DNA from: Microthyrium microscopicum | Taxonomy: Eukaryota | DNA: 64,000 nt | Assembly (NCBI GenBank): GCA_010405405.1 | Contig: MU004242.1 | Location: 717,751-781,750 of the forward strand | Direction: 5' to 3' | In this document: one piece after another, positions 14,838 through 59,293 of the stretch | How the letters are laid out: each line of letters starts with the position of its first letter | Numbering within the stretch: the first letter of the stretch is position 1 | Translations under genes and position numbers: made by a program | Notes under the pieces: model-generated | The model's input: the letters and a program-made list of their open reading frames with translations, nothing else | Database searches by the model: none | What the model was told of the DNA's origin: nothing

Positions 14838-16719
14838 TTAATAGAACCATCTGAATTCTGGCGAGGCCGGACCATTGCGCAACTTTTCAGTAGGAATATC
14901 TCGCACACTCAACGGTCCTGTCTTTCGGTCTCTTCTCTTATTGTCGAATATCATGTAAGAGCCAAGAATGATAGTCAATATTGCCCCCATACCTCCGAAA
15001 GCTGCGGTAGTTGCTAGAGCCGGAATGTATTTTGGTGCGTCCTTGGAGGTCATGTTAGCAAATCTTCTCAACCCGATTTCAAGCCTCTCATGCTACAGAG
15101 CAGAGAACTCACTTTGTTTTGAAAGATATTTGACGAAAGCACTCCCATCAAATTAGCCATGGGCACACCGACTGATGTTAGGACTAGCCGCTTTCCTTCA
15201 TGGGCAATATTGTTGTTGTACCAGACATCAAGAAGTACACTGGGAGCTGAAGTTCCCCTGAAAAAGTCAGTTTTGTCTTTCAGAGTTCAGAGCAACGTAC
15301 CAAGTCATCATGAATGTCGCAAAGTACGCAACATGAAGCTCGTCGAGCACGTCGATCGAAACATATATACAGAATCCAATGAAAGTGAATATGAATCCCA
15401 GAGCAATAAACGGAAATCTCAAGCGGGTATAATCGCTTGCAAAGGCTAGAACCAGCAGCATCACTGCTCCAGAAACATTCGGCGCGACTGTGTACAGATT
15501 CGTTTTGACTGGTGTGTATTTGAGTCTTGAAATGATTTGAGGAAGGAAGAGTTGCACTGATTGAAGTGGTACTCCCAGGCAAATCTCGATCGCGATGATG
15601 AGCCAGCTTGTCCAATGTTTGAAGATACTGATGGATTCTTTGAAGTTGAACTTTTCGTTGACCACACTGGAGCTGTCGATTTGCATTCGGTAGAACGCAA
15701 GTTTCTTTTCAGACTCTGATAAGAAAGTGGCATCTGCTGCACTATGTGGGAGATACCAAAAGGCGAAAATACTGAAAAGAGTTGTACAGGTTCCTTCGAT
15801 AATGAAGAGATATCTCCAACTGCTTAATGGTGCATTTTTGATCTGGAAAGTGCCAAAGGCCAAAAGTCCACCGAACGCAGATGCGATAGATTGAGCAGCA
15901 TAGAATAAGGCTAATCGTCTAGCTAGCTCACCTCGACGATAAAAGCTACAGACAGGTTAGTAGAGCAACGGGTGGACAAAATAATTGGCGTGCCCCAATC
16001 AAGTCGAATGGCTCCCACCAACGCTTCCAAACAGCAAGTACTATCAATCCCATCACAATCAATCGATAGTGGTGGAATAAACATAGTCCTTGGGAAATAA
16101 AGCACTCGATAGCAAAGCGTGGCAGATGGAAGCCATAGAAGTCAGTGGGGTCCGCCAGTTATTTTGTCCTTTGGTTGTAGTGCTTCAGCATGAATATATT
16201 AGGGACTTACGTTGTTTGATAGTAGATGACCAGAGGAAAGAAGGCCGATTCAGACATTCCAAGAAACCAGCGTAGAGTCATAAGTCCTCCAAAGTTCTTA
16301 ACGGCAGTTACAAGTAACGTAAGACAACCAAAGCAGAACATCATACAAGGTAGAACTTTATTAGGTCCGTACTTCTTCCCTAGTATTCCCAGGAATGGGG
16401 CTGTCAAGACGTATGGGATGAAGAATATACTGAGGATCAGATTGTACTGGCCATCTTTGAGGTGCAGGTCCTTTTCCAGTCCAGCTGTTTTGGCGTTTCC
16501 TAGATTCGATTTATCCAGAGAATTGAACAGATACATTACTGCCAAAACAGGCAAAATGCGCAAGTCGAATTTCCAAACGAGTATTCGCTCCGCCTTTGGG
16601 TCCATAATCATCTCTGTCTCTCCATCCTCGCCGATCACAGCCTGGGTTCCATCTTCTTTGATCTCGATAGCCTTGGAATGACTTCGGAGGGGGTCCTCAC
16701 CCTTCAAATCCAGAGACAT
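14838..16719 (-). CDS. MFS transporter, allantoate permease/TNA1-like (ACS family), 4 exons
   Basis: KFDLRILPVLAVMYLFNSLDKSNLGNAKT, RWFLGMSES, YQTT|FYRRGELARR, WRYLFIIEG. Introns 15946-16210, 15258-15300 and 15042-15112 restore the frame. Confidence 0.92.
15946..16210 (-). other. 265-nt structured (fold-back) intron, member of the ~54-bp-unit intron family
   Basis: GTAAGT..CTAAC..TAG boundaries. 16/17-bp inverted repeat 15974-15990 / 16153-16169 plus further nested stems. Carries the ATGGCTTCCATC..CGCT..ATCGAGTGCTTTATTTCCC unit. Confidence 0.8.
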
Positions 16720-16725
16720 AATTTT

Positions 16726-17143
16726 GATAAAACTGAGGTTCGTATTGCTGTTTGAACAGACCGGGCTGTTTCGAATAACCCTCGAAGACTCTTAACATGA
16801 AGCGGCAACCACTCATTTTTAACAGGTCCTCTTATCTCTCGTTGTAAAACTTTGATAAAGACAAGGATTTCTTGCGGGACTTTATGCTTGATAACGATCT
16901 TCGGTAGGGTTCTTATTGGTGGAGAGCTCCTCCGAAGCTGCAGCTACTGAGATCGTGCCCACCTAAGGCGAGGAGAACTGCAGCTTTTGAATCATTGAGT
17001 AGAAAAAGAAATGTTAGCCTGGGGAAGCTGTTGTAATGTACGGCCTACATGAGGAATCGGAGTGATCTCCGAGAAATCCGATGGCTATCATCTCAAAGGT
17101 TTTCGATGATTCTTGACCGGTTTCGGAATTTTTGGCTAGATAA
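16726..17143. promoter_or_regulatory. Cluster of GATAA sites upstream of the MFS gene (possible AreA/Nit2 nitrogen control)
   Basis: GATAA/TTATC at about 16726, 16832, 16854, 16890 and 17139. Confidence 0.4.
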
Positions 17144-17487
17144 AAGGCAATTAATAAAGTCTCGATTGGTAGATATACGCAAGTATCGTTGAAGCTTTTA
17201 GGACGGTGACATATATTTCATAATTCCAAGCAGACTGAACTACCTCTTGAGGGTTTCTGAACATCAGTGAACAATTAAGCTTCTTTTATGGACAGGTTTC
17301 GGGGTTTTCTGGTTCATAGAATGACACGACTGATATCATAAATTGGTGATTCTTAGACCGGCTTACTGACGTGTTGGAGGCCCATGATATCAGTGTAATA
17401 CTTCAATCAATGTGCCTATCCCTTGTATTCGTGATGCGTTAATCATTTATGGCCAATTGTGTATGAGGCAATGGTAGCAGCAATTGT

Positions 17488-18596
17488 TCACCATGGAAGC
17501 TGAAGAGGAATTGGAAGCTTGTCCTTTGGTCCGATGGTATCCTCAGCAGTTCCAATGTCTGCAGCGCCCCTTGGAGCCCAGTACGTTCCTGTTTTGGAGA
17601 TATCAAAAGTCTCAATCCAATCAATCAAAGATTTTGCAGCGACATCAGGTGTCACAGCTATTTCGAATCAGCCAACACGTACCCAGATAGATAAAGAGAG
17701 TGGACGAGGTCAACGGCATGGCAAAATAAAGGGTGTACTCCAACAACTCTGATGGCTACCACCAGCGCTGCTAACCAAGGTGCTTTACTTCCCATCGTAT
17801 CTAATAAATGCTCCCAGCCCGAGAGCCCTTGATGGGAAGTAAGGCACTCGACAACAGAGCGTAGCGTCTGGGCACCATCAGAGTTGATGGGAGTATGCCA
17901 TTTATTTCGACATGCAGTTGGAGGTATTGCAGATTAACTTACCTCCTCCTTCATCCCAAAACTTATCAAATCCCACCCCCTTGGTCATTTCAGTCCGCAT
18001 GAAGCCTGGATGAACCGAAACCACAGCGATACCTTGCTCTTTCATGTCCAAACTGAGCAGCTTGTTGACCATGTTTAACGCCGCCTTGCTCGCATGATGA
18101 CCATAATTGCCACCACCCTCCGATTCATGCCTCAACGTGATGCTGCCACTCTCTGAGCTGACCAGAATGACCTTTGAATCTTTTGCAAGTAAACCCGCTT
18201 TGACTAGCTTTTGGACTAGAAAGACAGGGCCAATAGCTGAGGTTGTGTACATTGTGACCTGTGCTGAATGTTAGAATTAGAGAATTCTGGTTCGACCATT
18301 TTGACAACCTGCGCATCCCAGTCGGGCTTGTCAAAAGTCTCCAAGCCAAAGAAGCCAGCGGTAACAATAAGTGTGTCGATGGAGCCTTTGATATCATTGA
18401 GACCTTTGATAACCTCGTCGCCTGCAGCAGGTGTACCGATATCGACACCAGTGATCCATTTGATGCTTGGGTCGCTATCTTTGGGAGCTGCTTTGCGACC
18501 TGTGCCGAAGACTGTATTCGAGCTGTCCTTGACGTATTGTTCGGCCAGTGATCTCCCAAGGCCGCGGGTTGCGCCGACGATTGCGATGTTTGGCAT
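17488..18596 (-). CDS. Short-chain dehydrogenase/reductase (C-factor/CsgA-like), 3 exons
   Basis: IAIVGATRGLG Rossmann motif, GHHASKAALN, VHPGFMRTEMT. Introns 18259-18308 and 17658-17942 give a last exon AVTPDVAAKSL..YWAPRG..LQLPW*. Confidence 0.9.
17658..17942 (-). other. 285-nt structured (fold-back) intron, member of the ~54-bp-unit intron family
   Basis: GTAAGT..CTGAT..TAG. Inverted repeats 17744-17755 / 17875-17886 (12/12) and 17780-17796 / 17831-17847 (16/17). Confidence 0.8.
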
Positions 18597-19103
18597 TGTG
18601 CCGAGAGTCGAGCTTTGATGGACGAAATACAGCGATGTTGCAGGAAGAAGGTTTCGTAGTAAGTTGTAGTAGGCACAGGGACGATGAAGAGCTAACATGA
18701 TATACGTCACTCCATGACACCTTACTCCTGCATTCCACCAAGTCGATTGCTAATTCTTGGTAAGCTTATCTGGGCCAGTGTAGTACTCTCTGGGCCAGTG
18801 GATACCATCCATTAGACGAAGCATAATAAATATTCCATTCTTCTTCATAAGACATCTTGGGAGGAATTAGTGCTTAGAAGATATAAAATGATTGGAACCT
18901 GCTCAGAACTTTGCCACCCCCCTACATCCGATGTCGGGTAGTATTGGATCCGGCACCATTTCTAATCTGTCTCCGCCACAGAAAATAGTTGATCGCCTCA
19001 ACATTTTTATAGGCTGGTCCTCACAAACAACCACATCTGGGATCAGAGGCCGTCGAGCCAAAGGCCTGATCACCACTTCATCACTCCCTAGTTCCTGGAT
19101 TTT

Positions 19104-20309
19104 ATGGCACCAACTCGACTGAACCTCCAGCGCCTACCCGCCGAGATTGTCGAGCTCATCTGCGAACATCTTGAGGATCACGACTTGATTTCTATCCGGA
19201 CTGTGTGCACGGCACTGTATTACCATAGTGTAAAAACTTGCGGATACCGATTATTCAGTGCTATCGGCACGAATCTTTCCAGAAAGAGCTTGGAAGCAAT
19301 TCGGGAACAATTTTCAAACTCCAGGTTCTCACCCTGTGTACACCATCTCAAAATACAGAGCAGTTGGCTTGAAAGAGCGAATGATCTAGGCCGGGGCTTC
19401 ACATGGAAACGAACAATATGTGGACGCCTCGAATATGACAACGAAGGGATCAAGGCTCTTGAGCAAATTCTTTTCAATATCTTTCCCAATTGTAGATCGT
19501 TCTCATTCGCGCCAAATCTGGATGATCGAGAACGCATTCCAACCGACGTAAAAGATGTCATCATGACTATGGACTGCGTTTCCATAATCTTCCTGATTGG
19601 CACTGAAACCGGGATGCCGATTCACGGATTCCATATGATTAGATCGAGATTCACATATCTCGATGACCTACAAGAATACGCGCCCGGATTTCTCGTGGAT
19701 ACCTGGTATCGATGCCCGCTCCGCCTGCTCGCAACCAAACCATTTAAAGAATCATGGAGTCATCTCACGGATCTGAGCTTAGCATTTGAGCTATCAAGCA
19801 CATCATCCTATCGCGCCCCAGACTGGGTCAAAGCCTTACTGTCTGGTACCCCTAGTCTGACATCGCTGGATCTCACGCTACATAGAATAGGCATCATGAT
19901 GCCACAAGACTTCCTTGATGTCTTGTGTTCCCCACGACGGAAGTATAACCTACGAACACTCGCACTGTCATCGGTAGGTATGCCATGGGAAGATCTTCTT
20001 CGACTATTGGATGCGCACCGCAATTCACTTACAAGTTTACAACTTCATCACTCGTCATTTCCGTATCGTCGGGGCCATGTTACGCTGCTTAATGAATTGG
20101 CTTCGATGCTTCCGCATCTGGACTTTATGAGTTTTGGCTGGCTGTTCCCAACATTGGATAACGATGAACAGATCTCCAGTGAAGACCGACAGGGGGTTAC
20201 CATATGGAGTGGAATGCGAAATTCGGAGCGTCAAGTTTTCAGAACTAGCTACTCTGGATCTGAAATCGTCAGAGCGTGTGGTATTATGCTTAAAGCTCTA
20301 GAAGAATGA
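19104..20309 (+). CDS. F-box-like / LRR-like hypothetical protein
   Basis: Intronless 401-aa ORF. N-terminal LQRLPAEIVELICEHLEDHDLISIRTVC motif; C-terminal LxxLxL repeats. Confidence 0.7.
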   Translation: MAPTRLNLQRLPAEIVELICEHLEDHDLISIRTVCTALYYHSVKTCGYRLFSAIGTNLSRKSLEAIREQFSNSRFSPCVHHLKIQSSWLERANDLGRGFTWKRTICGRLEYDNEGIKALEQILFNIFPNCRSFSFAPNLDDRERIPTDVKDVIMTMDCVSIIFLIGTETGMPIHGFHMIRSRFTYLDDLQEYAPGFLVDTWYRCPLRLLATKPFKESWSHLTDLSLAFELSSTSSYRAPDWVKALLSGTPSLTSLDLTLHRIGIMMPQDFLDVLCSPRRKYNLRTLALSSVGMPWEDLLRLLDAHRNSLTSLQLHHSSFPYRRGHVTLLNELASMLPHLDFMSFGWLFPTLDNDEQISSEDRQGVTIWSGMRNSERQVFRTSYSGSEIVRACGIMLKALEE

Positions 20310-20396
20310 AACGCAGTTCAAAACAAGACCGATCAATTGCCAAATGCGCTACTAATACACTACAATCTGCCACGTTATTACCACCCCCGTTGCAGT

Positions 20397-21239
20397 TCAG
20401 ATCACGACAACCGCTAAAGCCATGAGAGCTACGGACCCTAGCGGTGCCAATGAGCCCTTTGTGGCGCCAGAGAATTGTACCGCCTTCTGGCCATTGGTAC
20501 CTGTTGCTTTAGGCGCATTGGAAGCCTTTGGCGCTCTAGAAGCCTTGGGCGCCTTCGAAGCCTTTGCTGATGCCGACGCTTTCGCAGTGGGAGAAGCCGA
20601 TGCGCCAGGTGCTGGGGGAGCAGCCGCATTAGAATAAGCCTTGATGACCTTGTCGAGTGTTTCCGTGATACCAGCAGTCTGCTGCTTAGCCAACGGTCTC
20701 GCCAATACAGGGATTTTCTCCGACACCGAATCGACAAGATCTATCGAAGCAGATCGTTGCTGCTTCAATTGCGCCAGCACAGCGTCATTCAAGCCTGCCA
20801 TATTGACCACTGGTTGAATCTCGATCAGATCATTACTCAACTCATCCAAACTCGTTTGCAGTCCTTTAGCTGCGCGCTCAATGGCCAATGAGCCACCGAT
20901 ATCTGTGTCCCGCTCTTTATCAACATCGGCTTTTGCAGACACAAGCATCTTTCCTAGCATGTCGGCGTTTGTGGCAACGGCGCCTAAAGCTTGCATGTTG
21001 GTTGCGCTGACTTGCTTGACGGAGCCATCGAGAGCCATAACAGACTCTTGAACTGTGCTGAGTGCTTTCATGATTCCTTTGGCGGAGATGGCGCCACGGA
21101 TACTATCTTGGGATGTTGCAACCATCTGTGGGTCTGGTGCGCCGGGCATGGTGGCGGCCAGCGGAGGTGCTGCTGCTTGAGCGTTGACGGAGCCATAGGC
21201 GGCGGAGAGGAGAAGAATGAGTGTAGATTGGAGAAGCAT
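20397..21239 (-). CDS. Secreted/GPI-anchored cell wall protein, HsbA / Mp1p-like helical domain
   Basis: Signal peptide, amphipathic helical core (..VLAQLKQQRSASIDLVDSVSEKIP..), A/S/K/P-rich linker and hydrophobic C-terminal GPI-like tail. Confidence 0.75.
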   Translation of the reverse strand: MLLQSTLILLLSAAYGSVNAQAAAPPLAATMPGAPDPQMVATSQDSIRGAISAKGIMKALSTVQESVMALDGSVKQVSATNMQALGAVATNADMLGKMLVSAKADVDKERDTDIGGSLAIERAAKGLQTSLDELSNDLIEIQPVVNMAGLNDAVLAQLKQQRSASIDLVDSVSEKIPVLARPLAKQQTAGITETLDKVIKAYSNAAAPPAPGASASPTAKASASAKASKAPKASRAPKASNAPKATGTNGQKAVQFSGATKGSLAPLGSVALMALAVVVI

Positions 21240-22245
21240 GTTTATCAGAGATTGAAGTGAATGTGATTTAAAAGTGAGTGTTTAGCTGGAGACTGGATGA
21301 ACTACCTGGTCTCCCAGTGTTGGGAAACAAGTTTTTATATACTTTATCAATAGCATCTTCACATAATGTTTTGAATCCTCTTCATTTATCTAATTATAAA
21401 GCATGCGGACTTTGACTCAGGAACTGAATATGGCCGTATGAGGAAATACATCCTCTCGTGTTGGCAAAGGTTTGAAACTCGATATCCGGGGGTCATCGCT
21501 TAGAAGAGATACCGGTAATGTTGATGGTCACAAACATCCAACGGGATAACTTCAGCTAGCTGGACTTATTGAAGACCATGCGCACATATGCCATGATAGC
21601 ATAATGACATGATCGAAGTCGTCCAGGACTGTTGTTTTATACTCTTGAATAGCCGGGGCATAATTTGAGATTTCGAATACACAGAGTTAGCCAAAAGATT
21701 ATGTTGATAGCTTCATGCTTAAAGAAATCTACGGCCAAAGAAGGCTGAAACTCTTCGAATATGTTCTTAATCCATAGCCTCTGTTGTAGATTTAATCACC
21801 AAGAAGTGTTGAATCGTTCATTCTATGGATTCCGCCAGGGCTTCTAGAACCCTTTAACACATAAGCTATTCTTACAGCGAAACATGTTTATATAGACTAT
21901 TGAGACGAATTCTCAAACTGTTTACACTTGACACCTGTAACGCCAATATTTAAGCGAAGTCTACCACATACCAAATAATTTGTGAATATTGCTGCATCGT
22001 GTAATGTAGTGATCTTGGTGCCCTGAAGTATTCAGGAGTTTATGGCCCAAGCTAATAGCATTATGCGCAAAGACTGACGGTATGTAAGAATGAAAGGGAT
22101 AGCAGCGTATTAGAACATAATTAAGTAGCAAACTCATTATCATAAGAGAATAGAATGATTAGAAAGCTCAAAAGATGTCAACCATCTCAAGATAATCAAT
22201 CTCTGAAAGCCAGCCAGCACTGGCAGTGCTCACCGACTTCAGCCT

Positions 22246-23406
22246 TTAAGCATACTTCCGATCCTTAAACCCTGCAATAAGCTCCACAGTCCCATCCCCA
22301 GACTCCGCATACTTCTTCGCCGCAATCTCAGGATTCAGCTGAATCGTCTGCTTAGCCTTAACCCACTCTTCCATCGTTACTGGCTTCTCAAACCTGCTCT
22401 TCACGCCTGCCGCATTCAACACTGGGCTATCCACAATAGGCTCCAACACCACATCGTTATGTGGTCGTGAGAAGTATAGGAGTCCTGTACGTTCGTATTC
22501 CCACTGATCCTTCGGTGGCGCCACAACACGGTGGATGCTAGATTTGAGCCATCCGCCCGTGATGTGTGAGATGGTATCGGCCAGGTTCACAGTGATCGTG
22601 CCAGGCTGTGCGGAGACGTAAGTCCATTTACCGTCATCGCCGAGAATTTGTAGCCCGGCGACGGGTTGGCGGAAGAGAAGGGTTACGGTCCCGAGATCAG
22701 TGTGGCCGCCGGAGTGGCCGAAACCGCTGGCTTCGTGCTCTTCAGGGGTACGTTTGTGGTAGATCATGTAGCGGAAGTGATCTTCGCTTTTCTTGTCATA
22801 GGTGTGTTGGCGGACTAGATAGTCTTCATCTGGCAGTTGGAGGACAATCGCGAAGAGACGCAGGAGGGGGAGAACGACATTGGAGTGGAGCGATTTGGAG
22901 AAGTGCTCAATCTCAGGTAAATGCGCATTTAGAAGGTCTGGGCGTGTGTATTTTCCTTCAAAGTCTGGGGTGAACTTTGGGATGTTGAAGATTTCGACGG
23001 CGTCGACGGTAGAGCCGTTCTTGCTGCGTCCTGCGCGGCGCCAGCCGTTGTAGTTTGCGGTTTCGTACTTGACCTCGTGTTTGGCTTTCTCTTCGGTGGG
23101 GAGTTCAAAGAAGTGTTTGGCGAGCGTGAATTGTTGGTCGATCTGGGTTTGGTTGAGGCCAAAGTTCTTGACGTAGAAGAAGCCGACGTGGTGGACTGCG
23201 TGCTCGAGTTGTTTGGCTAGTCTTTCCTTTCCGCCTGGGCGGTCATAATCTTCGAGGTCGAGTGTGACTAGCTCTGCCCATGGAAGCTCTTCTTTTGTTT
23301 CTGGGGGATGGACATATGGAGTCAAGTTTTCGTAGCTGTATTGAGCTGGATTCTCTACAGGAAAGGAGACCTGAGGTTTGGCGGTTTTCGTAATGACAGC
23401 AGACAT
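22246..23406 (-). CDS. 2-oxoglutarate/Fe(II)-dependent oxygenase (IPNS/DIOX family)
   Basis: LVTLDL..VGFFYVKNFG; the HTD...H facial triad (GHTDLGTVTLLF, SSIHRVVAPP). Confidence 0.9.
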   Translation of the reverse strand: MSAVITKTAKPQVSFPVENPAQYSYENLTPYVHPPETKEELPWAELVTLDLEDYDRPGGKERLAKQLEHAVHHVGFFYVKNFGLNQTQIDQQFTLAKHFFELPTEEKAKHEVKYETANYNGWRRAGRSKNGSTVDAVEIFNIPKFTPDFEGKYTRPDLLNAHLPEIEHFSKSLHSNVVLPLLRLFAIVLQLPDEDYLVRQHTYDKKSEDHFRYMIYHKRTPEEHEASGFGHSGGHTDLGTVTLLFRQPVAGLQILGDDGKWTYVSAQPGTITVNLADTISHITGGWLKSSIHRVVAPPKDQWEYERTGLLYFSRPHNDVVLEPIVDSPVLNAAGVKSRFEKPVTMEEWVKAKQTIQLNPEIAAKKYAESGDGTVELIAGFKDRKYA

Positions 23407-24696
23407 TTTCGAAGTGTAGAGTAGAAAGATTTTATGATGTGTTCAGTGATTGAGTTTGTTGCTTCCCTTTGTAGCTCTAAATGCTGTTAAGTTTGATATC
23501 TCTACCCACATTTTTCGTAATAGCTGCCCCTGTATGTCACCATTAATTGCTTACCAAGTCATGCTCAACAACCAATATAGTTCAAGATGTAGAAAAGCAA
23601 AAACATGCTAAAAACGGGTATCGCGGCTATAGTAGCCAGAAGGTTCAGCGAATTCGGCGATGGTGAGATATCTTGGGCATTGCGTGATCGAAGACTATAT
23701 CACCAAATACAAGCTGTCAAAATTGTTCGACAACACATTATTGAGTCTAGTATCGTGCCTGTGATGTTTCCAGTGATTGATAGCACTCGAAAGAAAATGC
23801 TGCCATTGATCTGTGCGTGACTTTGATCTAACATTCCATCAAAGGACGCGCTCGAGAACATTTCCTGACCTGGATGAGAGTGGGGCCGATCAGTTGATCC
23901 TCGAAGTACATTTGGTCTCTCAACACGAGCAATGCTGCACGAAGTAGATCGACCATCTGGCCTTTGTCGTGATTCCAAGAACTAAAGGTGATACTGCTCC
24001 AGTCGTCCGGTCAAATCGTGAGCGCCAGTTTCTGCAACCTTGAAGAGCCTTAGAAAAGAGGAGGCGCATATTCGGGGGCCCACATTGGCCTGTATTGCTC
24101 AAGAAAGATGGCCAATGCCTGCGAGATAATTCGGTCTTATTCTCTTCCCCAACGTTTATGCTTTTTTATGCCGCGCGTGCATAGGGACATATGGATAAGC
24201 CATCTGGCATGTTCGCAAGTGTATGCGATAGGTTTGAAGTCATGTCGTTGGAAGAATGTCCTTGATTCGAGTCGTCATGCAGGTTTTCCGCGTTACTATA
24301 TAATGATTGTTTAAGCTTGAAGGAGTCTCAAATGCATGGTAGACCTGGTGACTTGATGTTTCCTCTGGCAGATTCTAGAAGGTTTGTCGAGTGTCGTGTT
24401 CTTAGATTTCCATACTTGAAACTTTGAAGCGCTGCATGTCGGGAGCATCATGGCAAGGTCTAGCTGAAGCTCTTCCAACTAGAAATTCCCAGGGATGCAA
24501 ACTTTTCAAGGCATCTTGCCTAAATAATCAAGCCCTGGGAGCCATTAGCGTATAGCCCATCAGTGATGTTCGAAGTACTTACAGAATAGTCGCATCGGAT
24601 GTATACGTTCGACTTGAGCCCGACATGACCACTATTCCTATGACTCTTGACCCTTCCAAAAAGATAAGGGAGTCCATGATCAAAATTCAAGAATCC

Positions 24697-25320
24697 TCAA
24701 CTACCCTCACCACCCTTCTTATCCCCATTAGCATCAAAGCCCAGCGCATCCAACTTCTTGATCAACTCATTGATCTGAATAACCTTATTAATCTGTTCCG
24801 GCAGTAACGGCGCCCCCTGACTTTCCTGCTTGCTCTTCAACTCTCTCGCCTGTCGTAGCTTTTTCGCCAACTTTTTAGCCTCCTTCTCTTTATCATCCAC
24901 CTTAACCTCTTCCTGTTTCTCCCCCTTACCCTCATCCTCTACCACCTTATCCCCACCCTTCTTCACCCCCTTCCCTTCTGAATCCCCATCACCAGTCTTA
25001 GCGGCGGCGGCAGCTTTTTTCCGCGCCTCTCTCCGTTTTGCATTTTTATTTGCTGTGGCACCACCCTTGTTTTCCTCATCGACAGCCTCGGCGCCTATGA
25101 CTCCGCCTTTGGAGCGGTTGGACCATGCTTCGGCAGTGCGGTTGCGGTAGACTTCTACATCTTCGGGTGGTCGATAGCCTGGGCGGATTTTTATCTCTTT
25201 GCGGAGGGAACCGTCTGGACGAACGGACGCGGGGATGTGACGGATGCCGTTTTCGTCTGTTGTGATGCCTGACTTTGTTGACTGTGTTGGCTCTGTCAGT
25301 GGGGGAGGGGATGGTGCCAT
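24697..25320 (-). CDS. PYM1: WIBG/PYM Mago-binding domain protein
   Basis: RHIPASVRPDGSLRKEIKIRPGYRPPEDV Mago-bind motif; C-terminal KKLRQARELK..LLPEQ..K. Confidence 0.85.
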   Translation of the reverse strand: MAPSPPPLTEPTQSTKSGITTDENGIRHIPASVRPDGSLRKEIKIRPGYRPPEDVEVYRNRTAEAWSNRSKGGVIGAEAVDEENKGGATANKNAKRREARKKAAAAAKTGDGDSEGKGVKKGGDKVVEDEGKGEKQEEVKVDDKEKEAKKLAKKLRQARELKSKQESQGAPLLPEQINKVIQINELIKKLDALGFDANGDKKGGEGS

Positions 25321-25619
25321 TTTAGTGGAGGGGGAGGGATGTGGTGAGATTTTTGGAAAGGGAGGATTGGCGCTTTATGAGAGAGGGGAGTCCGAGGATT
25401 CCAGGCGTAGAATAAAATAGGGGGAGAAAATATAAATGTTGGGAAAGATGTAGAGTGGGTTTGATGAGATGAAGTTGAGGCTCGGAAGTTGCCGCACCAT
25501 CTCCGAAAGCCAAGAATCTTCAATCTTGTGGTCCGCAAGCAACTTCTTTACCCAACTCAAGCTCGACCACCACACCATATCTCCGCGTCGCCAGACATCT
25601 CACCAGCTCAATCGTCACG

Positions 25620-26049
25620 ATGAGTGTAAGTAATATCACTTTGAGTCAATTTAAATAGGGATAAGGCGCTAACATTGGCGTTATCTAGCTCTACACATCC
25701 ATCTACAAGTAAATCGCCCTCCGCTCCCACCTCAATCGCCGGCCTCAATCGCGACTCAAGCTAATATACACGTCTAGCACTTTCTTCCGGAGTAATGCGA
25801 TGATGCTTACTACCGTATTTGGCGCGGCATTTGCTTTTCAAGTGTATGTTGTGGTCTACAAATACTGGTGCAAGGCTAATGGGCATATAGAGTGATGGAC
25901 ACCTCAGCAGACCGGATATGGGACAACGTAAACAAGGGCGTATGTTATACAAGATTATCAGTGTCGATCTTGGACTGAGACTGACGATGGAATAGCGGCA
26001 ATGGAAAGATATCAAGGCGAAATATGTCACGAAGGACGATGAGGAATAG
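25620..26049 (+). CDS. QCR9: Cytochrome b-c1 complex subunit 9, 5 exons (not in ORF track)
   Basis: Spliced reading MS|LYTSIYN|TFFRSNAMMLTTVFGAAFAFQV|VMDTSADRIWDNVNKG|RQWKDIKAKYVTKDDEE* with four GT-AG introns; WD..NKGRQWKDIK is the Qcr9 signature. Confidence 0.9.
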
Positions 26050-26750
26050 GCAGTTATGGGAAGCAGAAGACAGTGAAGCAGGCTCGGTGATTCTCAGAGC
26101 GATTGTCAATACAACTTGATGTACCATAGGGGAGTAACTAGCAGACAGTGTTTGCATGAATCAACGGATTAGACTGGCCATGTCTGTTGCCAACAACCAT
26201 CTTTGTACATGTAGCCAGTGATTGCTGTTCAGCGGTTGGAATGAGACATTCTGAACAATGAAGGATTGGCCCTATGTTAGAAGCAGGACAAACCCTAGAA
26301 TTGCTGCTTGTTGGCTATCAATCAGGGGCAATATCCTGTTCAAACAGTCAACACAGTGCAGTCTGAAACTGGTCAAAGTATAGGGACCGGTAAAATGCAG
26401 GTATTTATTGACCTGGGGAAGTTCATACAGTGAGACCGAGGCAAGTGCATTGTAGCGTGACCAGCCCCGCCATGGTCATTGCTGCAGTTTGGTACGCGCC
26501 TGCTCACTTACAAGTTACCGTACCTGTGTGCTGTGAGTCCAGGCTGTCACTTCCTACCATAACTTGCCATCCATGCTCACCCATCGGGATACCTGTACAG
26601 CTCCTGGAAGCCTTCATGACCTTCTCCCAAGTCATTAAACCTTAATCACTTACTACATACAATATACCTCTACTTCATCCGCCTACTCTACATCCCTCCC
26701 TGGTATACACATCATTGCTCGCTACACATCCCCTCCCGCCCGCCGGCACT

Positions 26751-29700
26751 ATGCATGGCCCGCCGATAAACCTCGAGTCTCTCGACCTCATTACCTTCCT
26801 ACGAGTTCTCCCTGCCGCCTATAACTTTAGATACACTGAAGCCGTCCACAATGTCATCCTACAGAAGCTCTTCATAAGCTGCATTGGCCCCACCGGTAAG
26901 TGCCAAATCACATTTCTTGACGATATTGGATGAAATACAATACATCTCATCGCCACTGCATTCGATGGTTACCATAGAATGCGCTCCTAGTCCAGTGCTA
27001 TGGATCCCACCGAATGCGGCGGGCGGCTCAGGCGTGTTGGCTCTGATCATAATCTGTTACTAACAACTTCCAGGACAATACAGCACTCTCTTCTTCCCTA
27101 ACAATACTCCTCCATTCGACCCTGACGTCAAATGGTCTCTTCGCGAAGCTCAGGGCGCTATAGAAGGCGCCGAGTATACAGAAGCTGCCCGCGGTACTGC
27201 TTGCGGCCATATATTTCGACCGGGCGAGGCGAGTTATCAATGCCGCACATGTTCTAGCGATCCAACATGTGTGCTTTGCGCGCGCTGTTTCGATGCCAGC
27301 GACCACGATGGACACCCTGTTTATATTCACGCTAGTGATGGGAATTCAGGATGCTGCGATTGTGGCGATTCAGAGGCCTGGAATCGGCCAGTACACTGCG
27401 GCATTCATTCTGAAGACGAAAGTGCACATGGTCATAAAGACAAGGCAAAGGTATCTGAGCTACCGGCGGAGTTGCTTGAGACTATACGTCAGACTATTTC
27501 AAAGTCACTAGACTATATGTGTGATGTGTGGAGCTGTTCGCCAGAGCAGCTCAGAGCCAACAAGTCCAAAGATAGCATTTTGGAAGATGAGTGCCTATCA
27601 AGACTGGCCAGTGAAGTTTACGGAGGCCCGGACTTGGCTGTACAACAATCTGGCCAAGAAGTTGAGTACGCATTGGTACTTTGGAATGACGAAAAACACA
27701 CCGTGCAAGATGTCAGAGACGCTGTGGCAAGAGCATGTCGTGTTAGCAGCGCAGAAGGGCGGACTCGAGCCGATGAAATTGACAGAGTTGGCCGTACCGT
27801 TGTCAAGTACTCCAAAGACATTAGCGAACTGCTCCGAGCGGCTGTAATCCTGGAACAACCCAAACTCTCAGTCACCATTCGGTCCTCGCGAGACATATTT
27901 CGCGAACAGATGTGCGGTTCTATTGTCGAGTGGATTCTCGATGTCTCCGGTTGCGCTGTTGGCTCAGACGGCAAAATACTTAAGCAAATCATATGCGAGG
28001 AGCTCATGAAAGAATGGCGAGTCGGCAGCTTTGCTCATCACAAGATGGTGGGCCAAGATGGCATCTACGATCATGACAAGGAGGAGGTTCAGAAAGATCT
28101 TCAAGAGAACCTGGGTCCGTATAGTACTGGTTTGATCCAGAGACTCCAACATGCCTGGGGTGCCGCAGCTGATGTGCAAGATGATTCAGTAGACGACGAT
28201 ACTGTAGAGGATCATCCGCAAGATGCCAACGACGCCATGGATATAGACACCCCATTCATCCCCTCAAGTTCTCATGATGTAAATGATAACATGTCAGCAA
28301 GCGGCGTTGGTGAGACATCTGAAGGTCAAAACACTCCTGCCGCGAGCCAGAGTTCCGAAGGCGCTGCTCGTTCCAATAATGATTTCATGTTAGAAGAAGC
28401 TGACAGCAACGATGCCTTGCTGACCATACCTCGGACTCCTGCTGCAAGGGTTAAGAAGACCCCGAAGCCACCGAGTTATTGGCGAGATATGCCAGCAGGC
28501 TGTTACGCTCCTGGCCTCACTTCACCTGAAGAAAATCTTCGGAGAAGAGTTCGATTAGATTGGCTCATTCTGTATGACCTGAGAATGTGGAAACAACTTC
28601 GCATCGACCTTCGAGAAGTCTTCATAACGACACTTATCACCATCCCCAAATTCAAGAGGCTTCTTGCACTGAGATTTGCTAGCGTCTTCACAGTGCTTGC
28701 CGAGCTACACCTCATCGCTGATCGCGAGCCAGATCATTCCCTCATCTTCTTATCTCTCCAACTCCTTACCGTTCCCTCCATTACTACTGAAGTTATCGAG
28801 AGAGGAAACTTCCTTACCAACCTAATGGCCATAATCTATACTTTCCTCTCAACTCGTCAAGTTGGCTATCCCCATCAAGTTGATCTCTCTGCTACTCTGG
28901 CTATCGACCAAGGAGTTGTGTTCAATCGCAGAGCGCAAACGTTCTACCACGATATGCGTCATATGCTTTCCTTGGAGATCGTTCGTGAACGAATACGAAT
29001 TGAGCCTCGGTACCTCCTTCAATTCCTTGATATCGCCAAGATCCACCAAGGGATATGCCCCAATGTGCGAGCTGTTGGCGAACACTTGGAATATGAAATG
29101 GAAGCTTGGATGAGTCTGTCAACAGTGATGACAGAGGTCATGAGGCTCTGTCGTTCCTTTGCAGAATCGTACTACATCCAAAATGAGGATCACTCTCCAA
29201 ACTTGCAAGGCGCTCTACGAACCGCAGCAGGTGTCGCAATCATTAATTCGCTGGGTTGCGAATTGTCACGCTTTGAGCAAGGAGAGATCAAACAACTGGT
29301 GCAATTTCATAGCCTGGGACCATTCGAATTTGACCATCAACATGCACCGCCATACTGGACAGTTCGATACAAGGTTGCCGAAGAACCTATGAGCTGCTAT
29401 CATCCGCTACACTATATCCTGTCCTGGCTGCTAAGCGAAGCACGATCAGAGAGCGCCGACTATATCAAAGGCTTGCTACACTTTTCGGAAAGTGATCTTC
29501 AACCAATGATTACATCCAAATCTACATACAAAAAACTCAAGGACGTTGGCGATATTCCCGGCAACTATCTCTTGGCCATGTTCGATCTTCCCATCCGTGT
29601 TTGCGCCTGGTTGGCACAAACTCGCGCTGGAATGTGGGTACGAAATGGTCTCTCGTTGAGGCATCAGATTCAGCAGTATAAGAGTGCTAGCCGAAGAGAG

Positions 29701-32700: not shown

Positions 32701-33548
32701 TGGGCGCAGCATTACACCGAGCAAGACGACATTATAAATCTCGCTCATCCTGCTATCTTTGAACTCGTAGGCTTGCCGAAGAACTTTGATACATTGCAGG
32801 ATGAAGTTATGAGACGGAAATGTCCTGCTACTGGACGCGCGCTCTGGGATCCGGCGATCTGTCTACTTTGCGGCGAGATTTTCTGCTCACAGAGCCAGTG
32901 TTGTACGAAACCAGCGACTGATGGGCATGGGAACACTGGGAGAAAGGTTGGTGGTTGCTGGCAACATCGTGTCAAGTAAGTTTCCCTCAAAACCCCCTTT
33001 GCCCACACCATCCAACCGCTCGACAAAAAATAAGTGGACGCGCTCCCATCAAGTGCGGTGTCTACCATCTGCTGCGCTTTGGCACCGGTGCTCTATTCCC
33101 CTTGCCAATGATTATATACCGTTGGATTATCCTTCGAGTACGCTGGGTGATAAGGCATTTTCTCGTTATGAAATGCGATGGTAGACACCGTTGTCGATGG
33201 GAGTGCGCCATCATTTACGCCCCTCATTCCCATCCTTTCCCTCCTATCCTATCCTTGTTTCTTTACTAACAATCTCACAGATGCGGCGGCAAAGTCGGCA
33301 TTTTCCTACATATCCGCAAATGCACAATACTGTACCTGCATGAAGGCAGCGGCTCATTCACCGTCGCTCCCTATCTTGACAAATTCGGCGAGGCAGATCC
33401 CAGCTTGAGGAGCAATTTGCAGCTCTTTTTGAATCAGAAGAGATATGATAGTATTTTTAGGTCTGCGTGGCTGATGAGCCAAATTCCGAGTGTCATTGCG
33501 AGACGGTTGGAGGGGGAGATTAGCACAGGGGGATGGGAGACTTTATAA
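26751..33548 (+). CDS. UBR1: N-end rule E3 ubiquitin ligase UBR1, 3 exons
   Basis: UBR box (CGHIFRPGE..C..C..CDCGD..C..H), ClpS-like WNDEKHT segment, WVRNG, RING (CILCQE..CGHIMH..CPLCK), C-terminal YLDKFGEAD..GWETL*. Introns 26896-27073 and 32976-33280. Confidence 0.95.
26896..27073 (+). other. 178-nt UBR1 intron 1, member of the ~54-bp-unit intron family
   Basis: GTAAGT..CTAAC..CAG. Unit GCCACTGCATTCGATGGTTACCATAGAATGCGCT..CAGTGCTATGGATCCCACC with a 54-bp period (26952/27006). Confidence 0.8.
32976..33280 (+). other. 305-nt structured (fold-back) last intron of UBR1, member of the same family
   Basis: GTAAGT..CTAAC..CAG. Perfect 14-bp inverted repeat 33056-33069 / 33177-33190, extended by 33040-33050 / 33196-33206. 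Confidence 0.8.
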
Positions 33549-43360: not shown

Positions 43361-43490
43361 CGTCAGTGTCTCGACGTTAAAACATACCTATTCAAACTCA
43401 TCAACTCATCAAACAATACAAAGCAAACTTACATCTACTCCAGACTTACTTTCAACTATTCTTCCTTTAAGAAAACATCATCTCTTCAAT

Positions 43491-47034: not shown

Positions 47035-47071
47035 ACACAGCTCCCATCTCCTTAATGTTGGCAGGGAATAT

Positions 47072-54363: not shown

Positions 54364-54959
54364 GAAAGATTGAATGGTTTGGTTGGGCTGAGTGAGATTC
54401 GTGTGCAGATTGACTTGGTGGACGCTTGTTGTTGTTGCGTCCGTAGTCTCGCTGGATAGAATGTGTTGCTGTTTTCTTGTTATATTTCTGCGTTGTTGAA
54501 CGGCCCTATTTTGTGTTTTATGTTCATGATGGGAAGGGTGTTTGTTTTGAAAGTATCTTTGGCGTATTTGATTTGACGAGCGTCGATAGTCTCCGCTGCA
54601 GTTGTTAGGATCGGTTTTGGGTTTGCTTGGGCACTGGTGGATTTGATGTCTATGCGTCTAAGAATCCAGTTCTTGATGTGTGGATTTGATGAAGGATGCG
54701 GGATATGAATCAGTAGAAGGAAAGTATGGTAGATAGCTACATGAACTCTTCAGTATGTTAGGAAGTTAGGAACGACATTGCATCCCTTTTCTAAATCATT
54801 GATCGAATTTCATCTTAAGACGCGCAAGTCTATTCTACAAGTCGACTCGAGGAGTATTTCCAACCTCAATATGCAATGACTTGCTTCCTTCACCAAACAA
54901 TACCTGTGTCTTGGTTCCCACTTTAGCATGGCAACCAGATCTCCACCTCAGATGCCCCA

Positions 54960-55187
54960 TTACATCCTGCTCATCGCTTCGGCAGCTGCTGACTTCGCCA
55001 TCGCAGCTTCGTATTCAATTTCGCAATCTCGACAAGGCTCGGTTTTGAGATGGATATGGTCATGAGGAACGCAGTAGATCTGGTGAACTACACAGAACAC
55101 CGGCTTTCCCTGTTCCCGTTTCCTGCAGTTTCCCTTGTATTTCTTTGGGCAATGGTGTTTCGTTGTTCCTACTCTCCCGTGTGGCAT
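54960..55187 (-). CDS. Small Cys/His-rich basic protein (possible zinc-binding)
   Basis: 75-aa ORF starting at ATG: HHC..C..FCVVHQIYC..H.H.HLKTEPCRDC. Confidence 0.5.
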   Translation of the reverse strand: MPHGRVGTTKHHCPKKYKGNCRKREQGKPVFCVVHQIYCVPHDHIHLKTEPCRDCEIEYEAAMAKSAAAEAMSRM

Positions 55188-55521
55188 TGTGATATGATGC
55201 CTGGATTGGCGCAGAAAGGTCTTGAGTGTAGAAAGTGCGTGATGATTGGTATGGATGGCTGTATGTTTGCGAATAATAAACTCAACATAGCTGGTATGTA
55301 TGCTAGAAAGCTTATTAGTACATATTCTGAAAGATGGTGTTGCTCATATTCACAGCAAGTAGCCAAATGACCTATATCTATTAGCTATTGACCAGCCAGT
55401 GTTGCAATTTTGTGGCTGCGCCTTCCCTGACTTATAGCAAGCAGTCAAAGGGTCCATGATATAAGTGACAGATCGTAATAGAGTCTATACCGCTTGAGAA
55501 GTTCCAGTGTCAATGTGTGCA

Positions 55522-55600
55522 TCTCCCATCGGATGCGCTGGGAATTAAAGCATCTTTTCGTTGACAAGTGCGATGGTGGCCATCGCAGTCGATGGGAGCT
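55522..55600 (-). repeat. Stand-alone copy of the ~54-bp intron-family unit
   Basis: The minus strand reads GCTCCCATCGACTGCGATGGCCACCATCGCACTT..GATGCTTTAATTCCCAGCGCATCCGATGGGAG, with a 54-bp period (55596/55542). Confidence 0.7.
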
Positions 55601-56510
55601 GATCAGTTGTTGGGCTCACTGGAAGGGCAGTGTCATTGTTAATCACATTGGCTCAAGAGCCATATTATCAATTGAAATCTTGAAAGATACCCTGCTCAAA
55701 TACAGAAATTTGCAAAGCTCTCGTGTGGAGGAATCGCCAGGCACAAGCAGTATGTCGGCTGGGAGCTTTTCAGGACCAGGAGAAAATACTCGCTTTCACC
55801 ACTATGCAATAAAGTCATAACAGGCCCACCGTGATCTAGGATTTGTGACATCAGATGTTGTTACTTCTACTTGACGCTCAGTATCCGTAGCCATCACATC
55901 GTCGCGAATAATCACCCTTATCGAAAATGGCATTCCTGTGCACCCCGATCCATTCTCAAACTGCAGCAAGCTGGAGTTACAGCCGAAGCGAATAGTGTGA
56001 CGGCTACCTGAAAGGTTATGTACATTGTCAATAAGACAAAACTTGAAGTTTCTTCAGCCTTACATTTGTGTCATAAGGCTGAAGTGAAGCCTTACCTATT
56101 TTGATTTAGCTCAGCCTTGACTCGCTCTTTCCTTAAATTCTCCCACCATATACCTTCTTATCACCTAGGTATTTCTTTCGTAACGGTATGTAAAAGTCAT
56201 CGCCCAGAAACTTAATGTTCTTCGCTACTGTCAATAGCCACGGAAGACCAATTTTTGAGAATTGTTACCATTGACTAGCAATTCAGCGCGCAACAGGTCA
56301 AAAAGCAAACGGTCAGTGTCACCAACCGAAGGGATCTGTCACCAGAAAGATAAAGTGGGGTAGGAAGACAAAGTTCTATCATTTATTGTACAAGCGCCGA
56401 CTCACAGATATCAAAAACTTCATCCCTTCCTTATTTCCAGCAATCATCTACTGCCGCCGTAGTGTAGATGCTTAAAGCCTCCTGCAACAAATCGATCCCG
56501 AAGCGACATC

Positions 56511-57803
56511 ATGGCCGAAAAGGAGCAAGCGATGAGATCTCACGAGAATTCTATGGACTTGGCCTCCTTAAGTCTAAGGCCCAATATTGAGTCCCCCCCA
56601 CCAAGTCCCACAGGTTCAGCTGTTTCGGAATCCTCAACGGTGGAGTGGAACCACGTACCTTTCACCGATTTCCAAGCGCAAGTTCTTGAGCTTGGCCTCG
56701 AAATTCTCAATGACTCAACTAGAAGTTCGATCGAGATTGAACGGCTAAGAGGTGGAGGTGAGAACCGAGTAATTGGACTAAAACTCACAAAGCCTGCAAC
56801 ATTCCAGCAACCTTCGGTGGTAGACAATTACGTTCTTCGAATCCCTCGCCGAATTTGCGATGCCGATTTCCCACATACCATGGCCCAATTGGATTTTGCT
56901 GCACGAGTGAGCAGTATTCCAGTTCCAAAGACAATCAAGGTGGAATGTTCAAAAGAGAATCCTATTCAGAGTCCTTACCTTTTGCAAGAGCGTATCCCAG
57001 GTCAATCTCTGCTGGACGCTTGGCCAGATTTCAATCTCTCACAAAAGCTGTCCGTGACTCGACAGATCGCAACCTTGTTCCAGTCGATTCGAGCCTTCCC
57101 AGTTTCACGTGGAGGCATTCCGGATCCAAAAAAAGAACTATTACCTTGGCCGCATCAACCTCCTATACTCCGATATCCTCAATGCAACTCTTCAGGCGAA
57201 TCTCTGACTGGACCAGCATCTACGGCGTTATTCCAGAGTCCAACGGACATGTTGCAATCACGGTTGGATGTTTGGATGGAGAGAGATATCAAACATAGAA
57301 AGCCACTTTGGGAAATGCTCTCCCAAGGCTTCAAAAATCTCAACGCCACCACCGGTCTTTTCGAAAGCGAGTTTTATTGGTACCACGGAGACTTCCAGCC
57401 TCGGAATCTTCTCGTAGCAGTCATCAGCGAGGAGGAAGTCAAGATTACCGGTGTGCTAGACTGGGACAACAGCCATTTCGCCCCTGCGGTTGTAGCGTTT
57501 GAGCCGCCTTGTTGGCTGTGGATGCAAGATTACTGGAAGGATGCTAGTGACCCAACACCTGATGGCACGGAATGGTACATGACCGAGGCGATGCTCTGTG
57601 AAAAAGCTGGTTTGATACCTACGAACGATGACGACAAACAGATCAAAGAATGCTTTGAAGAATATTTGCAATCGCCTTATGTGCTGAAGTTTGCGTATGC
57701 CAACCATGCGGTTGATGCGAGAAGACTGTACAAAATGGTGCTTGATGGGCTCACGGATCAAGACGTTGGGGAGGTCGCAGTGAAAATCTGCGAACGTCAC
57801 TGA
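56511..57803 (+). CDS. Aminoglycoside phosphotransferase / choline kinase-like protein
   Basis: GGGENRVIG, YVLRIPR, IPVP, PYLLQERIPG, HGDFQPRNLL (Brenner motif), ITGVLDWD. Confidence 0.85.
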   Translation: MAEKEQAMRSHENSMDLASLSLRPNIESPPPSPTGSAVSESSTVEWNHVPFTDFQAQVLELGLEILNDSTRSSIEIERLRGGGENRVIGLKLTKPATFQQPSVVDNYVLRIPRRICDADFPHTMAQLDFAARVSSIPVPKTIKVECSKENPIQSPYLLQERIPGQSLLDAWPDFNLSQKLSVTRQIATLFQSIRAFPVSRGGIPDPKKELLPWPHQPPILRYPQCNSSGESLTGPASTALFQSPTDMLQSRLDVWMERDIKHRKPLWEMLSQGFKNLNATTGLFESEFYWYHGDFQPRNLLVAVISEEEVKITGVLDWDNSHFAPAVVAFEPPCWLWMQDYWKDASDPTPDGTEWYMTEAMLCEKAGLIPTNDDDKQIKECFEEYLQSPYVLKFAYANHAVDARRLYKMVLDGLTDQDVGEVAVKICERH

Positions 57804-57998
57804 CTTTCTGTCTGTTTAAGTCTGTTTGGAGGCTCGTTTACCCTGCTAACGGAAGCGATTGTAGTCGAAAAGGTTGAATATATAATCCTGAGAGTTCAAT
57901 AGTGTAGCAGAAATTATCAAATTGTGTCTAACTCAACTGGCTTGAGATCAACAGCTTCCAATAATACTCATACTCATATACCTTCAACCACGGTCATC

Positions 57999-59293
57999 AT
58001 GAACTCAAATCACATCAAAGACCACGAAATGCAAGCTACCGCGGCTGGTCCGCAAGATGTAGTGTTATTCACACTAGGTCAGGGGATATCAGCAACCTCA
58101 GCTCACTTCATGACATGGTAATTACCCTGAATCAGAGCAGTTCTGACGAAATCCAAAAACAACATATCTCCCATCGCACTCGATGGCTCCCATAAAACCT
58201 GTTCTTGTTCGAGTGCTGTGGGTCCCATCAGATGCGATGGCACCCATAACACTTGAACATTATTTTGACCGGGCAAGGCTAAACAGTCCTTTCAACGTGT
58301 TGTCCAAAATAATGATCTTATACTAAAACATTTTAGGTAAGCCTTTTCTAGATTATACCATATTTCTTGACAACATTCAACAAAATCAAAAACAGCGTTG
58401 CTCCCATCGCATTCGATGGCTACCATATGATGCGCTTGTGATCGAGTGCTATAATTCCCACCGCACTCGATGGCTTCCATCAGAAAGCACTTTTATAATC
58501 TCTACTGACCAATTCCAGGGATGCCATATACAATGACAGGGACGAATCTCGCCGGTACAAAATCCAGAGCTCGTGCAATGTAAGCCTAAAAGATGGAGCC
58601 ATTGAATTCAAGGCTGGCACTGCGTTCACGAAAGAATCTCTGTATTCCAAACAAAAGAAACACGGGTTCTTGCAGACGGGCCCCCCCGGACGGCACGCAT
58701 GGCTCATTTGCGTGGGTATAGAAGGAGGCCCCATGAACGGACCGGAGCCACCGAGGATAGATCTTGAGCTGAGACTTGTGAGTGTCTAAGCAAAGAGCAC
58801 TCTCTTCTTCATGTACTAACTCTTCTAGGAACCAGGCGATGACAAATGGCGCCGCGCAGGCAGCAATCTCATCACCTATAAGTCCATAACCAAGGCGTTC
58901 TGTCACGAAACAAAGCTACGAAAGCTCCTGGAGGTCACAAATTTTATGGATGGCGAATTATTTGTGATGCCAATCAAAGGTCCGATCGAGATTCCTGACA
59001 ATGGCTTGCTTGAGTTCCAAGTACACAATCGAGGCTTCGTGTCCAGGGGTTTGAGAGGACAGCATGTCGGCCGTGGACCAGTGATAGTGCGATGTGTTGT
59101 CAATGACGACCTGCCAGGTACTTATGAGTTGTTGCATGAGCATCTCAAACTTGGGGGATGGCATTTCGAAAGTTGGGGTAGCGGAGAGACTTTTGGGGAG
59201 CCCATTGTCATTGATACAAGGAGCTCATATGGTCCTAAAGTCCCCAAATCTGTCAGATTTGTACCACAATCAGGGGCAAGTGGTAGTGGATGA
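57999..59293 (+). CDS. Hypothetical protein, 3 coding exons (57999-58117, 58519-58777, ~58829-59293)
   Basis: Exon 1 ..HFMT-TG|GTAATT; after CTGAC..CAG at 58518 the frame stays open (WDAIYNDRDESRRYKIQSSC..LELRL). A short GTGAGT..CTAAC..TAG intron then joins in frame to the 58946-59293 ORF. Confidence 0.65.
58118..58518 (+). other. Two abutting introns (58118-58336 and 58337-58518), each carrying tandem ~54-bp family units
   Basis: GTAATT...TACTAAAACATTTTAG|GTAAGC...CTGACCAATTCCAG; units at 58170/58224 and 58403/58457. Confidence 0.65.

Follow-up and report, generated by a model that had tools for sequence, protein, structure and literature searches.

The stretch of DNA analysed here, 64,000 nucleotides of contig MU004242.1 of Microthyrium microscopicum (assembly GCA_010405405.1, positions 717,751 to 781,750; hereafter the window, numbered from its first letter), carries among its genes an MFS transporter and a short-chain dehydrogenase (SDR), both on the minus strand, and a UBR1 gene and a hypothetical gene (HYP), both on the plus strand. 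All four contain introns of unusual length, the element-bearing introns measuring 178-305 nt as against 47-69 nt for the ordinary introns recovered as splice joints, and the sequence lodged in these long introns is our subject. An initial annotation had proposed that six such introns share a palindromic unit of about 54 bp and represent an element that generates or targets introns. As set out below, the family is real and abundant. In our judgement it is probably a non-autonomous fold-back DNA transposon resembling a miniature inverted-repeat transposable element (MITE), the long copies of which would have entered existing introns, while the short copies would be its degenerate or deleted relatives.

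Census of the repeated unit

The central claim of the initial annotation, that one unit is common to all six of the long introns it named, was borne out by sequence inspection, by alignment and by a profile hidden Markov model (HMM). The alignable part is an arm of ~95 nt, of which each long intron contains two and each short copy one, and ten such arms were aligned by MAFFT. When the 64-kb window was searched with the resulting arm HMM (nhmmer), exactly ten arms in seven elements were recovered, with E values from 1.4e-18 to 6.9e-25; this search is circular for its own members and serves as a census of the window. Elsewhere in the 64 kb nothing scored better than E 7e-5, and the weaker matches came from these elements in their opposite-strand reading. 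The comparison with shuffled sequence that the initial annotation had called for gave a best E of 0.28 among 20 Markov-shuffled windows. Likewise, a gapped 26-base pattern was found twice against an expectation of 0.00. Six of the seven elements lie inside long introns; the seventh, at 55519-55620, had not been listed before.

The copies are far from uniform, arm identity between those of the window being 40-65%. The spacing of 53-55 bp originally given for the CCC motif in every copy holds for the better preserved ones, CCCAYC following CCCAYC after 54-55 nt in the SDR copy and in both HYP copies (HYPa and HYPb), but it widens to ~54-57 nt where the copies are more degenerate. The mini-palindrome CCATCG-n-CGATGG recurs among them.

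Sequencing reads aligned to positions 15500-33500, a range covering the MFS, SDR and UBR1 introns, provide an estimate of abundance beyond the window. The source DNA run contributed 456 contigs to this range, and their summed depth rises from a baseline of ~1037 to 132157 at position 17874, within the SDR element, an excess of ~130-fold. Other genomic copies align up to exactly 15966, 17711 and 17920 and no further. Past these stops the agreement with the flank consensus is 0.44-0.53, approximately that of unrelated sequence by our own estimate, which was made without a control. Many of the genomic copies are at least 85% like the SDR copy. We conclude that the genome contains roughly on the order of 100 copies or more, as the claim of a multi-copy family implied, and that, judged by excess depth, the SDR copy stands closest to the majority of the family, the MFS and UBR1b copies being older. 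We also observed that source-run contigs break in or beside the elements (16095-16122, 17769-17878 and 26609-27080), as is expected of a dispersed repeat.

Searches outside this genome were negative. Rfam at gathering thresholds yielded no family in the window, the element's exact pattern had 0 matches among metagenome contigs, and the arm HMM did not find the family in 80 related UBR1 loci (1.33 Mb; best E 0.076).

Long fold-back copies and their host introns

Three introns contain a long fold-back, that is, two arms of ~100 nt in inverted orientation. In the MFS intron (15946-16210, minus strand, 265 nt) the element occupies 15966-16177, runs from CAAC to GTTG over 212 bp and has arms that are 70% alike; its outer boundary at 15966 is one of the points at which foreign alignments end. 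In the SDR intron (17658-17942, minus strand, 285 nt) a 210-bp element with arms 79% alike spans 17711-17920, and here both boundaries coincide with such loose ends. In UBR1 intron b (32976-33280, plus strand, 305 nt) the element is 217 bp long (33013-33229), its arms are 71% alike and its right terminus is degenerate, with GAAT in place of CAAC. The description of the three longest copies as fold-backs was thus correct, and their predicted RNA folds are significantly stable, with z scores of -5.5 for the MFS intron (-89.2 kcal/mol), -5.6 for SDR and -5.1 for UBR1b, the predicted hairpins beginning at the CAAC/GUUG termini. With the HYP region (z -4.9) this makes four stable folds, and the family was rightly called hairpin-forming; UBR1 intron a alone, at z -1.7, is not significantly structured.

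Immediately outside the CAAC...GTTG termini stand matching 5-mers that have the form of target-site duplications (TSDs). The SDR element is flanked by GAGGT on both sides (17706-17710 and 17921-17925, 5/5), and the UBR1b element by CCATC (33008-33012 and 33230-33234, 5/5), a match that is partly confounded by the occurrence of CCATC within the unit itself. The MFS element has TAGAG at 15961-15965 and TAGTG at 16178-16182 (4/5). Lengths from 3 to 8 other than 5 do not fit, and the chance probability for a single pair is 0.0011 for 5/5 and 0.016 for at least 4/5. The elements end 20-53 nt inside the long introns, and the 5' splice site, the branch point and the 3' splice site are all located in unrelated flanking sequence; the flanks of the three long copies have no mutual similarity beyond generic signals (all p >= 0.07). 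Subtraction of the element and one TSD leaves 48 nt for the MFS intron (265-212-5), 70 nt for SDR (285-210-5) and 83 nt for UBR1b (305-217-5). These residual introns are ordinary in size when compared with the other introns of the window (47-69 nt) and with the orthologous UBR1 intron b (48-163 nt).

Evidence that the long introns are removed comes from a second run, X5. Its label, 'RNA?', is a guess; that the run is spliced we take from its contigs, which lack GT..AG stretches present in the source DNA run. A single X5 contig without mismatches skips 15946-16210, 17658-17942 and 18257-18306. The joints 15945>16211 and 17657>17943 have GT..AG ends on the minus strand (CT..AC as written on the forward strand), confirming the MFS and SDR intron borders exactly as they had been proposed. 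Another X5 contig extends from 27073 to 32975 and so ends at borders of both UBR1 introns, which is consistent with their removal, the joints themselves not being explicit. Further X5 contigs skip four stretches of 47-69 nt with GT..AG ends at ~25.6-26.0 kb, all of which are kept by the source DNA run.

The age of the intron positions bears directly on whether the element makes introns or enters them. For UBR1 we compared 80 related fungal loci taken from metagenome contigs, the nearest named relatives of the gene being Dothideomycetes at ~50-57% identity. At the site of intron b, an intron that agrees in codon position and phase and measures 48-163 nt is present in 29 of 43 distinct loci and absent from the other 14. 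In one of these loci (L029, ~13139-13310) intron b measures ~163 nt against a median of ~66; this long intron does not belong to the present family, as the only match of the arm HMM, at E 0.076, lies elsewhere in the locus. The SDR comparison rests on 22 aligned homologues of open-reading-frame (ORF) type, out of 120 listed, with 78-87% identity. The intron site is interrupted in 21 of the 22, at the same residue and phase: 19 diverge just after ...WDxGG into G[K/E/M/T/Q/N], as expected for GTAAG, GTGAG or GTATG donors, two carry an in-frame insert of ~24 amino acids and then resume, and one is uninterrupted. Judged by these comparisons, the SDR and UBR1b intron positions are ancient. Given the age of both sites and the position of the splice signals beyond the element ends, the alignments indicate that two of the three long copies entered pre-existing introns.

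In this context the family would be best described as MITE-like, because it combines terminal inverted repeats (TIRs), 5-bp TSDs and high copy number with unrelated flanks. The copies are short and non-coding, have long inverted termini and a duplication of fixed length, form hairpins and occupy many unrelated sites, all of which are features of MITEs. Duplications of 5 bp are typical of Transib and integrase-type elements; no named fungal MITE family is known to combine a 5-bp TSD with CAAC termini.

The proposed course of events is as follows. The full form would be an element of ~210 bp with CAAC...GTTG termini and two inverted arms of ~100 nt, each arm composed of a 27-nt terminus, one unit of ~54 nt and the start of a second. 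It would insert with a 5-bp TSD, presumably by means of a transposase supplied in trans. The long copies would have landed downstream of the 5' splice site and upstream of the branch point in pre-existing introns, lengthening normal introns of ~47-83 nt to 265-305 nt. In the pre-mRNA the arms would pair from their termini and loop out the insert, such that the distance between the 5' splice site and the branch point would be approximately unchanged. In yeast, intron secondary structure can shorten the effective distance. Looping out would explain both the precise splicing of the long introns and the survival of fold-backs within introns, and introns could be the one genic place where a fold-back is harmless, a candidate cause of the intron bias described below. 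UBR1a, the two HYP copies and the copy at 55.5 kb would then be degenerate or internally deleted relatives.

Short copies and rival readings

UBR1 intron a (26896-27073, plus strand, 178 nt) consists for the most part of a degenerate copy of the short type. Its core extends over ~26909-27042, the arm HMM matches 26925-27028 (E 1.7e-18), and an X5 contig starts at 27073.

The intron region of HYP (58118-58518, plus strand) contains two short-type copies in direct order, at 58148-58247 and 58382-58479 (E 6.1e-20 and 6.9e-25), which form a repeat (D3) of 99 nt with 72% identity. The division of this region into two introns, 58118-58336 and 58337-58518, at AG|GTAAGC (58336/58337) was a reading of the sequence only. 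A public protein identical to the exons of the window (P0361) joins ...QDVV to DAIY..., which implies a single intron of 455 nt (58064-58518) with both copies inside it and places the 5' splice site at 58064 (GTTATT), as against 58118 (GTAATT) in the initial annotation. A search with the HYP exons returned the gene's own protein (E 4e-52) and three marginal matches, and HYP is an orphan gene. The 3' part of HYPa, at 58273-58336, has an extra terminus-like CAACGTGTTGTCCAAAATAATGA after a right-end-like ATTATTTTGACC, an arrangement that suggests nested or rearranged copies. The gene just upstream of HYP, at 56508-57800, consists of one exon and belongs to the APH phosphotransferases (Pfam PF01636, E 4e-13).

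The seventh copy (55519-55620, minus strand, E 1.3e-20) is a short hairpin form in a stretch of ~2 kb without a recognisable gene. It is bracketed by an 11-nt direct repeat matching at 10 of 11 positions (55505-55515, CAGTGTCAATG; 55628-55638, CAGTGTCATTG), unlike the 5-bp TSDs of the long copies, and this repeat may point to local duplication or to another route of insertion. A heuristic intron finder places a candidate plus-strand intron, 55298-55630, around this copy. At the boundaries of the short copies that were tried by eye, no convincing pair of TSDs was seen.

With regard to sequence context, positions 6000-14000 of the window are AT-rich, with a GC content of 0.20-0.25 compared with ~0.47 elsewhere, and this block is consistent with the retroelement degraded by repeat-induced point mutation that the initial annotation had mentioned. 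The element-bearing introns have a GC content of 0.41-0.49.

The association with introns, also noted at the outset, is strong within the window, six of the seven elements and five of the six loci being intronic. Element-free introns make up ~3-5% of the sequence, a rough figure based on X5 joints and on the heuristic intron finder, which is noisy, yields many implausible long candidates and was used for this fraction only. By our own arithmetic the binomial probability of the bias is ~1e-7, or ~1e-4 with exons excluded (p = 0.12). The initial annotation had regarded randomly intergenic, TSD-flanked copies as the mark of an ordinary MITE: the long copies do have TSDs, but the copies of the window are not randomly intergenic.

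A number of observations weigh against a simple transposon that only enters introns. Firstly, the intron bias would not obviously be given by random insertion of a MITE followed by ordinary selection, and no autonomous partner with matching termini was seen in the 64-kb window. Secondly, the MFS intron is missing from all six ORF-type homologues examined (68-86% identity), the exons joining seamlessly; the search returned proteins of at least 395 amino acids only and could therefore show intron-free forms only. Thirdly, UBR1 intron a has no counterpart in any of 64 distinct related loci, where the frame is uninterrupted to the start codon, and its presence is seamless, LF and FFP being separated by 13 residues, the number found in the relatives. 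Finally, the similarity among the short intronic copies does not stop at the element termini. About 12 nt upstream of CAAC (CAYATTTCTTGA) are common to UBR1a and the HYP copies, and so is a 3' tail in which ATAATCT, the branch point and the 3' splice site follow at equal spacing. Compared with shuffles, the flanks outside the core are similar at the 5' side with p = 0.015 and 0.018, and at the 3' side with p < 0.0005 for UBR1a with HYPb and 0.026 for UBR1a with HYPa. When the shared part is removed from the short introns only ~32-42 nt are left, and this residue is too short for a pre-existing intron here.

As to the MFS intron, we note that the same gene has a second intron of ~43 nt, at ~15258-15300 on the minus strand after ...FMMTW, which contains no element and is absent from the same six homologues. 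Because this element-free intron is also absent, absence in the six homologues is not specific to element-bearing introns.

The strongest competitor, which we regard as possible but clearly the less probable, holds that the short type is introner-like: either an intron with a captured transposon or an element with its own splice signals would have inserted seamlessly at new sites, in UBR1a and in the HYP intron or introns, with the fold-back core as the source of the stable structure that characterises fungal introner-like elements (ILEs). The absence of UBR1a from all 64 loci, its seamless fit and the flank similarity outside CAAC/GTTG speak for it. Moreover, UBR1a can be aligned to HYPb from CAYATTTCTTGAC, 12 nt upstream of CAAC, through the 3' splice site, and to HYPa starting at the 5' splice site, and the tail score of UBR1a with HYPb is exceeded by only 0.4% of 465 control intron pairs. 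The short intronic copies are all in sense orientation, the family as a whole is biased towards introns in the window, and the host belongs to the Dothideomycetes, the class in which ILEs have been described (PMC4457414). In keeping with its source, the MFS exon has 100% identity to an NCBI protein attributed to Microthyrium microscopicum.

The same comparisons nevertheless contain points on the other side. Only two loci are involved, and the adjacent HYP copies may be a tandem duplicate. The similarity of the first 30 nt is not significant against control introns, and in its tail UBR1a resembles the old UBR1b intron almost equally well (score 12 against 14), so that part of the likeness is owed to branch-point and acceptor signals of a generic kind. 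The arms of UBR1a, HYPa and HYPb are 53-65% alike, not near-identical, and the excess of DNA depth over UBR1a in the source run is small (1560 in its bin, compared with ~1000-1180). Since the relatives compared are distant (at most 66% identity here), an old lineage-specific gain with later entry of a MITE is possible, and an element-free intron, the 43-nt one of the MFS gene, is likewise lacking from its six homologues. Two surveys, in their supplements, report 0 introner families for this species.

Judging from the alignments, UBR1a is a lineage-specific, seamless intron gain, as the comparison of intron ages called for by the initial annotation now indicates; the short derivative in it marks a genuine gain and may be introner-like. 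The original idea of an intron-generating element accordingly survives in part. For the long fold-backs as generators there is no support, their ends being internal to the introns, their flanks duplicated and the SDR and UBR1b sites old, while the gain of UBR1a fits the idea without proving it.

Two further readings fare much worse. That selection maintains the common unit in introns as a structured RNA with a function or as a protein-binding module, for example a small RNA or a splicing regulator, seems very improbable. The strong hairpins (z ~-5), the recurrent mini-palindrome and the pairing kept within elements although the copies differ would suit it, but the absence of any Rfam family at gathering score in the window, the TSDs, unrelated flanks and ~100 or more copies that are the hallmarks of a transposon, the high divergence of the copies, the lack of significant structure in UBR1a and the failure to find the family in 1.33 Mb of related fungal loci led us to reject it, in its small nucleolar RNA form as in others. 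A resemblance of the long introns through chance or low complexity, for which the shortness of the exact motifs is the single point in favour, can be dismissed with near certainty in view of nhmmer E values down to 7e-25 against 0.28 for the best of 20 shuffled windows, the gapped 26-base pattern found twice where 0.00 was expected, and hundreds of matching contigs from other parts of the genome.

Relation to known systems and to intron gain

How fungi come by new spliceosomal introns is unsettled. Introner-like elements of the Dothideomycetes were reportedly described by van der Burgt in 2012; neither the origin nor the mechanism of fungal ILEs is known, and they differ from other introners in that transposon hallmarks are lacking. 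How far the present family resembles ILEs and other systems therefore depends on which of its parts is considered.

Ordinary MITEs share with the long copies the features set out above, a difference being that an intron bias of six in seven is much stronger than expected of a MITE. As to the ILEs of Dothideomycetes, the account by Collemare and colleagues (2015, PMC4457414) describes near-identical whole introns, longer than regular ones, with stable structure and in unrelated genes. The class of fungi, the length (178-305 nt versus 47-69 nt), the structure (with the exception of UBR1a, z -1.7) and the unrelated host genes agree with this, as does the newly gained, seamless position of UBR1a. 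The repeat unit of the long copies, however, is not the whole intron, since homology ends at CAAC/GTTG, and the copies of the window are only 40-65% alike. In the introner survey PMC9860276, ascomycete introner families are reported without TIRs or TSDs, whereas the long copies described here possess both, leave the splice sites outside and, in two of the three cases, occupy introns of ancient position. Microthyrium microscopicum is scored with 0 introner families in the supplements of both that survey and its successor (PMC9860276 and PMC12130899; Gozashti 2022, 2025), a score that fits introns whose similarity stops short of the splice sites.

The MITE-type Introners of algae and other eukaryotes, as presented in the same two surveys (PMC9860276, PMC12130899), share with the present family the combination of TIRs and TSDs and the association with introns. 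These elements, however, create the intron when they insert, the splice sites being part of the element or its TSD or adjoining them, whereas in the long copies described here the TSDs are separated from the splice sites, which lie 20-53 nt further out. The sister stwintrons of Hypoxylaceae, with which the initial annotation had drawn a comparison, are likewise symmetrical, hairpin-capable introns of ~200 nt in many genes, and seamless as UBR1a is (PMC8469720). According to that report they are nested as [D1,2], bear terminal inverted repeats, have no flanking duplications, contain a WTTCTAGAAA palindrome and belong to Sordariomycetes, none of which holds here. The comparison does not survive, and we reject the stwintron reading: G|GT...AG|T nesting is lacking, the inverted repeats are internal to the intron and not at its termini, and TSDs are present. 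A limited literature search, covering MITEs in Dothideomycete introns and the introns of Microthyrium microscopicum, found no description of this family.

Taken together, the window offers a one-genome case in which a transposon has demonstrably lengthened old introns and a related short form is found in a newly gained one. It also carries a caution, in that long introns of similar sequence can be transposon cargo in old introns and not introners. At the same time, the long copies constitute a natural test of whether a hairpin can hide a large insert from a fungal spliceosome that prefers short introns. We put forward only tentatively, as something rather less likely than its opposite, that a transposon with TIRs and TSDs seeded an introner-like lineage in this ascomycete, with spread of the whole intron creating UBR1 intron a. 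If true, this would be the first link in ascomycetes between the signatures of a DNA transposon and intron gain, it would place such a lineage in a genome scored as introner-free by two surveys, and it would hint at the source of fungal ILEs.

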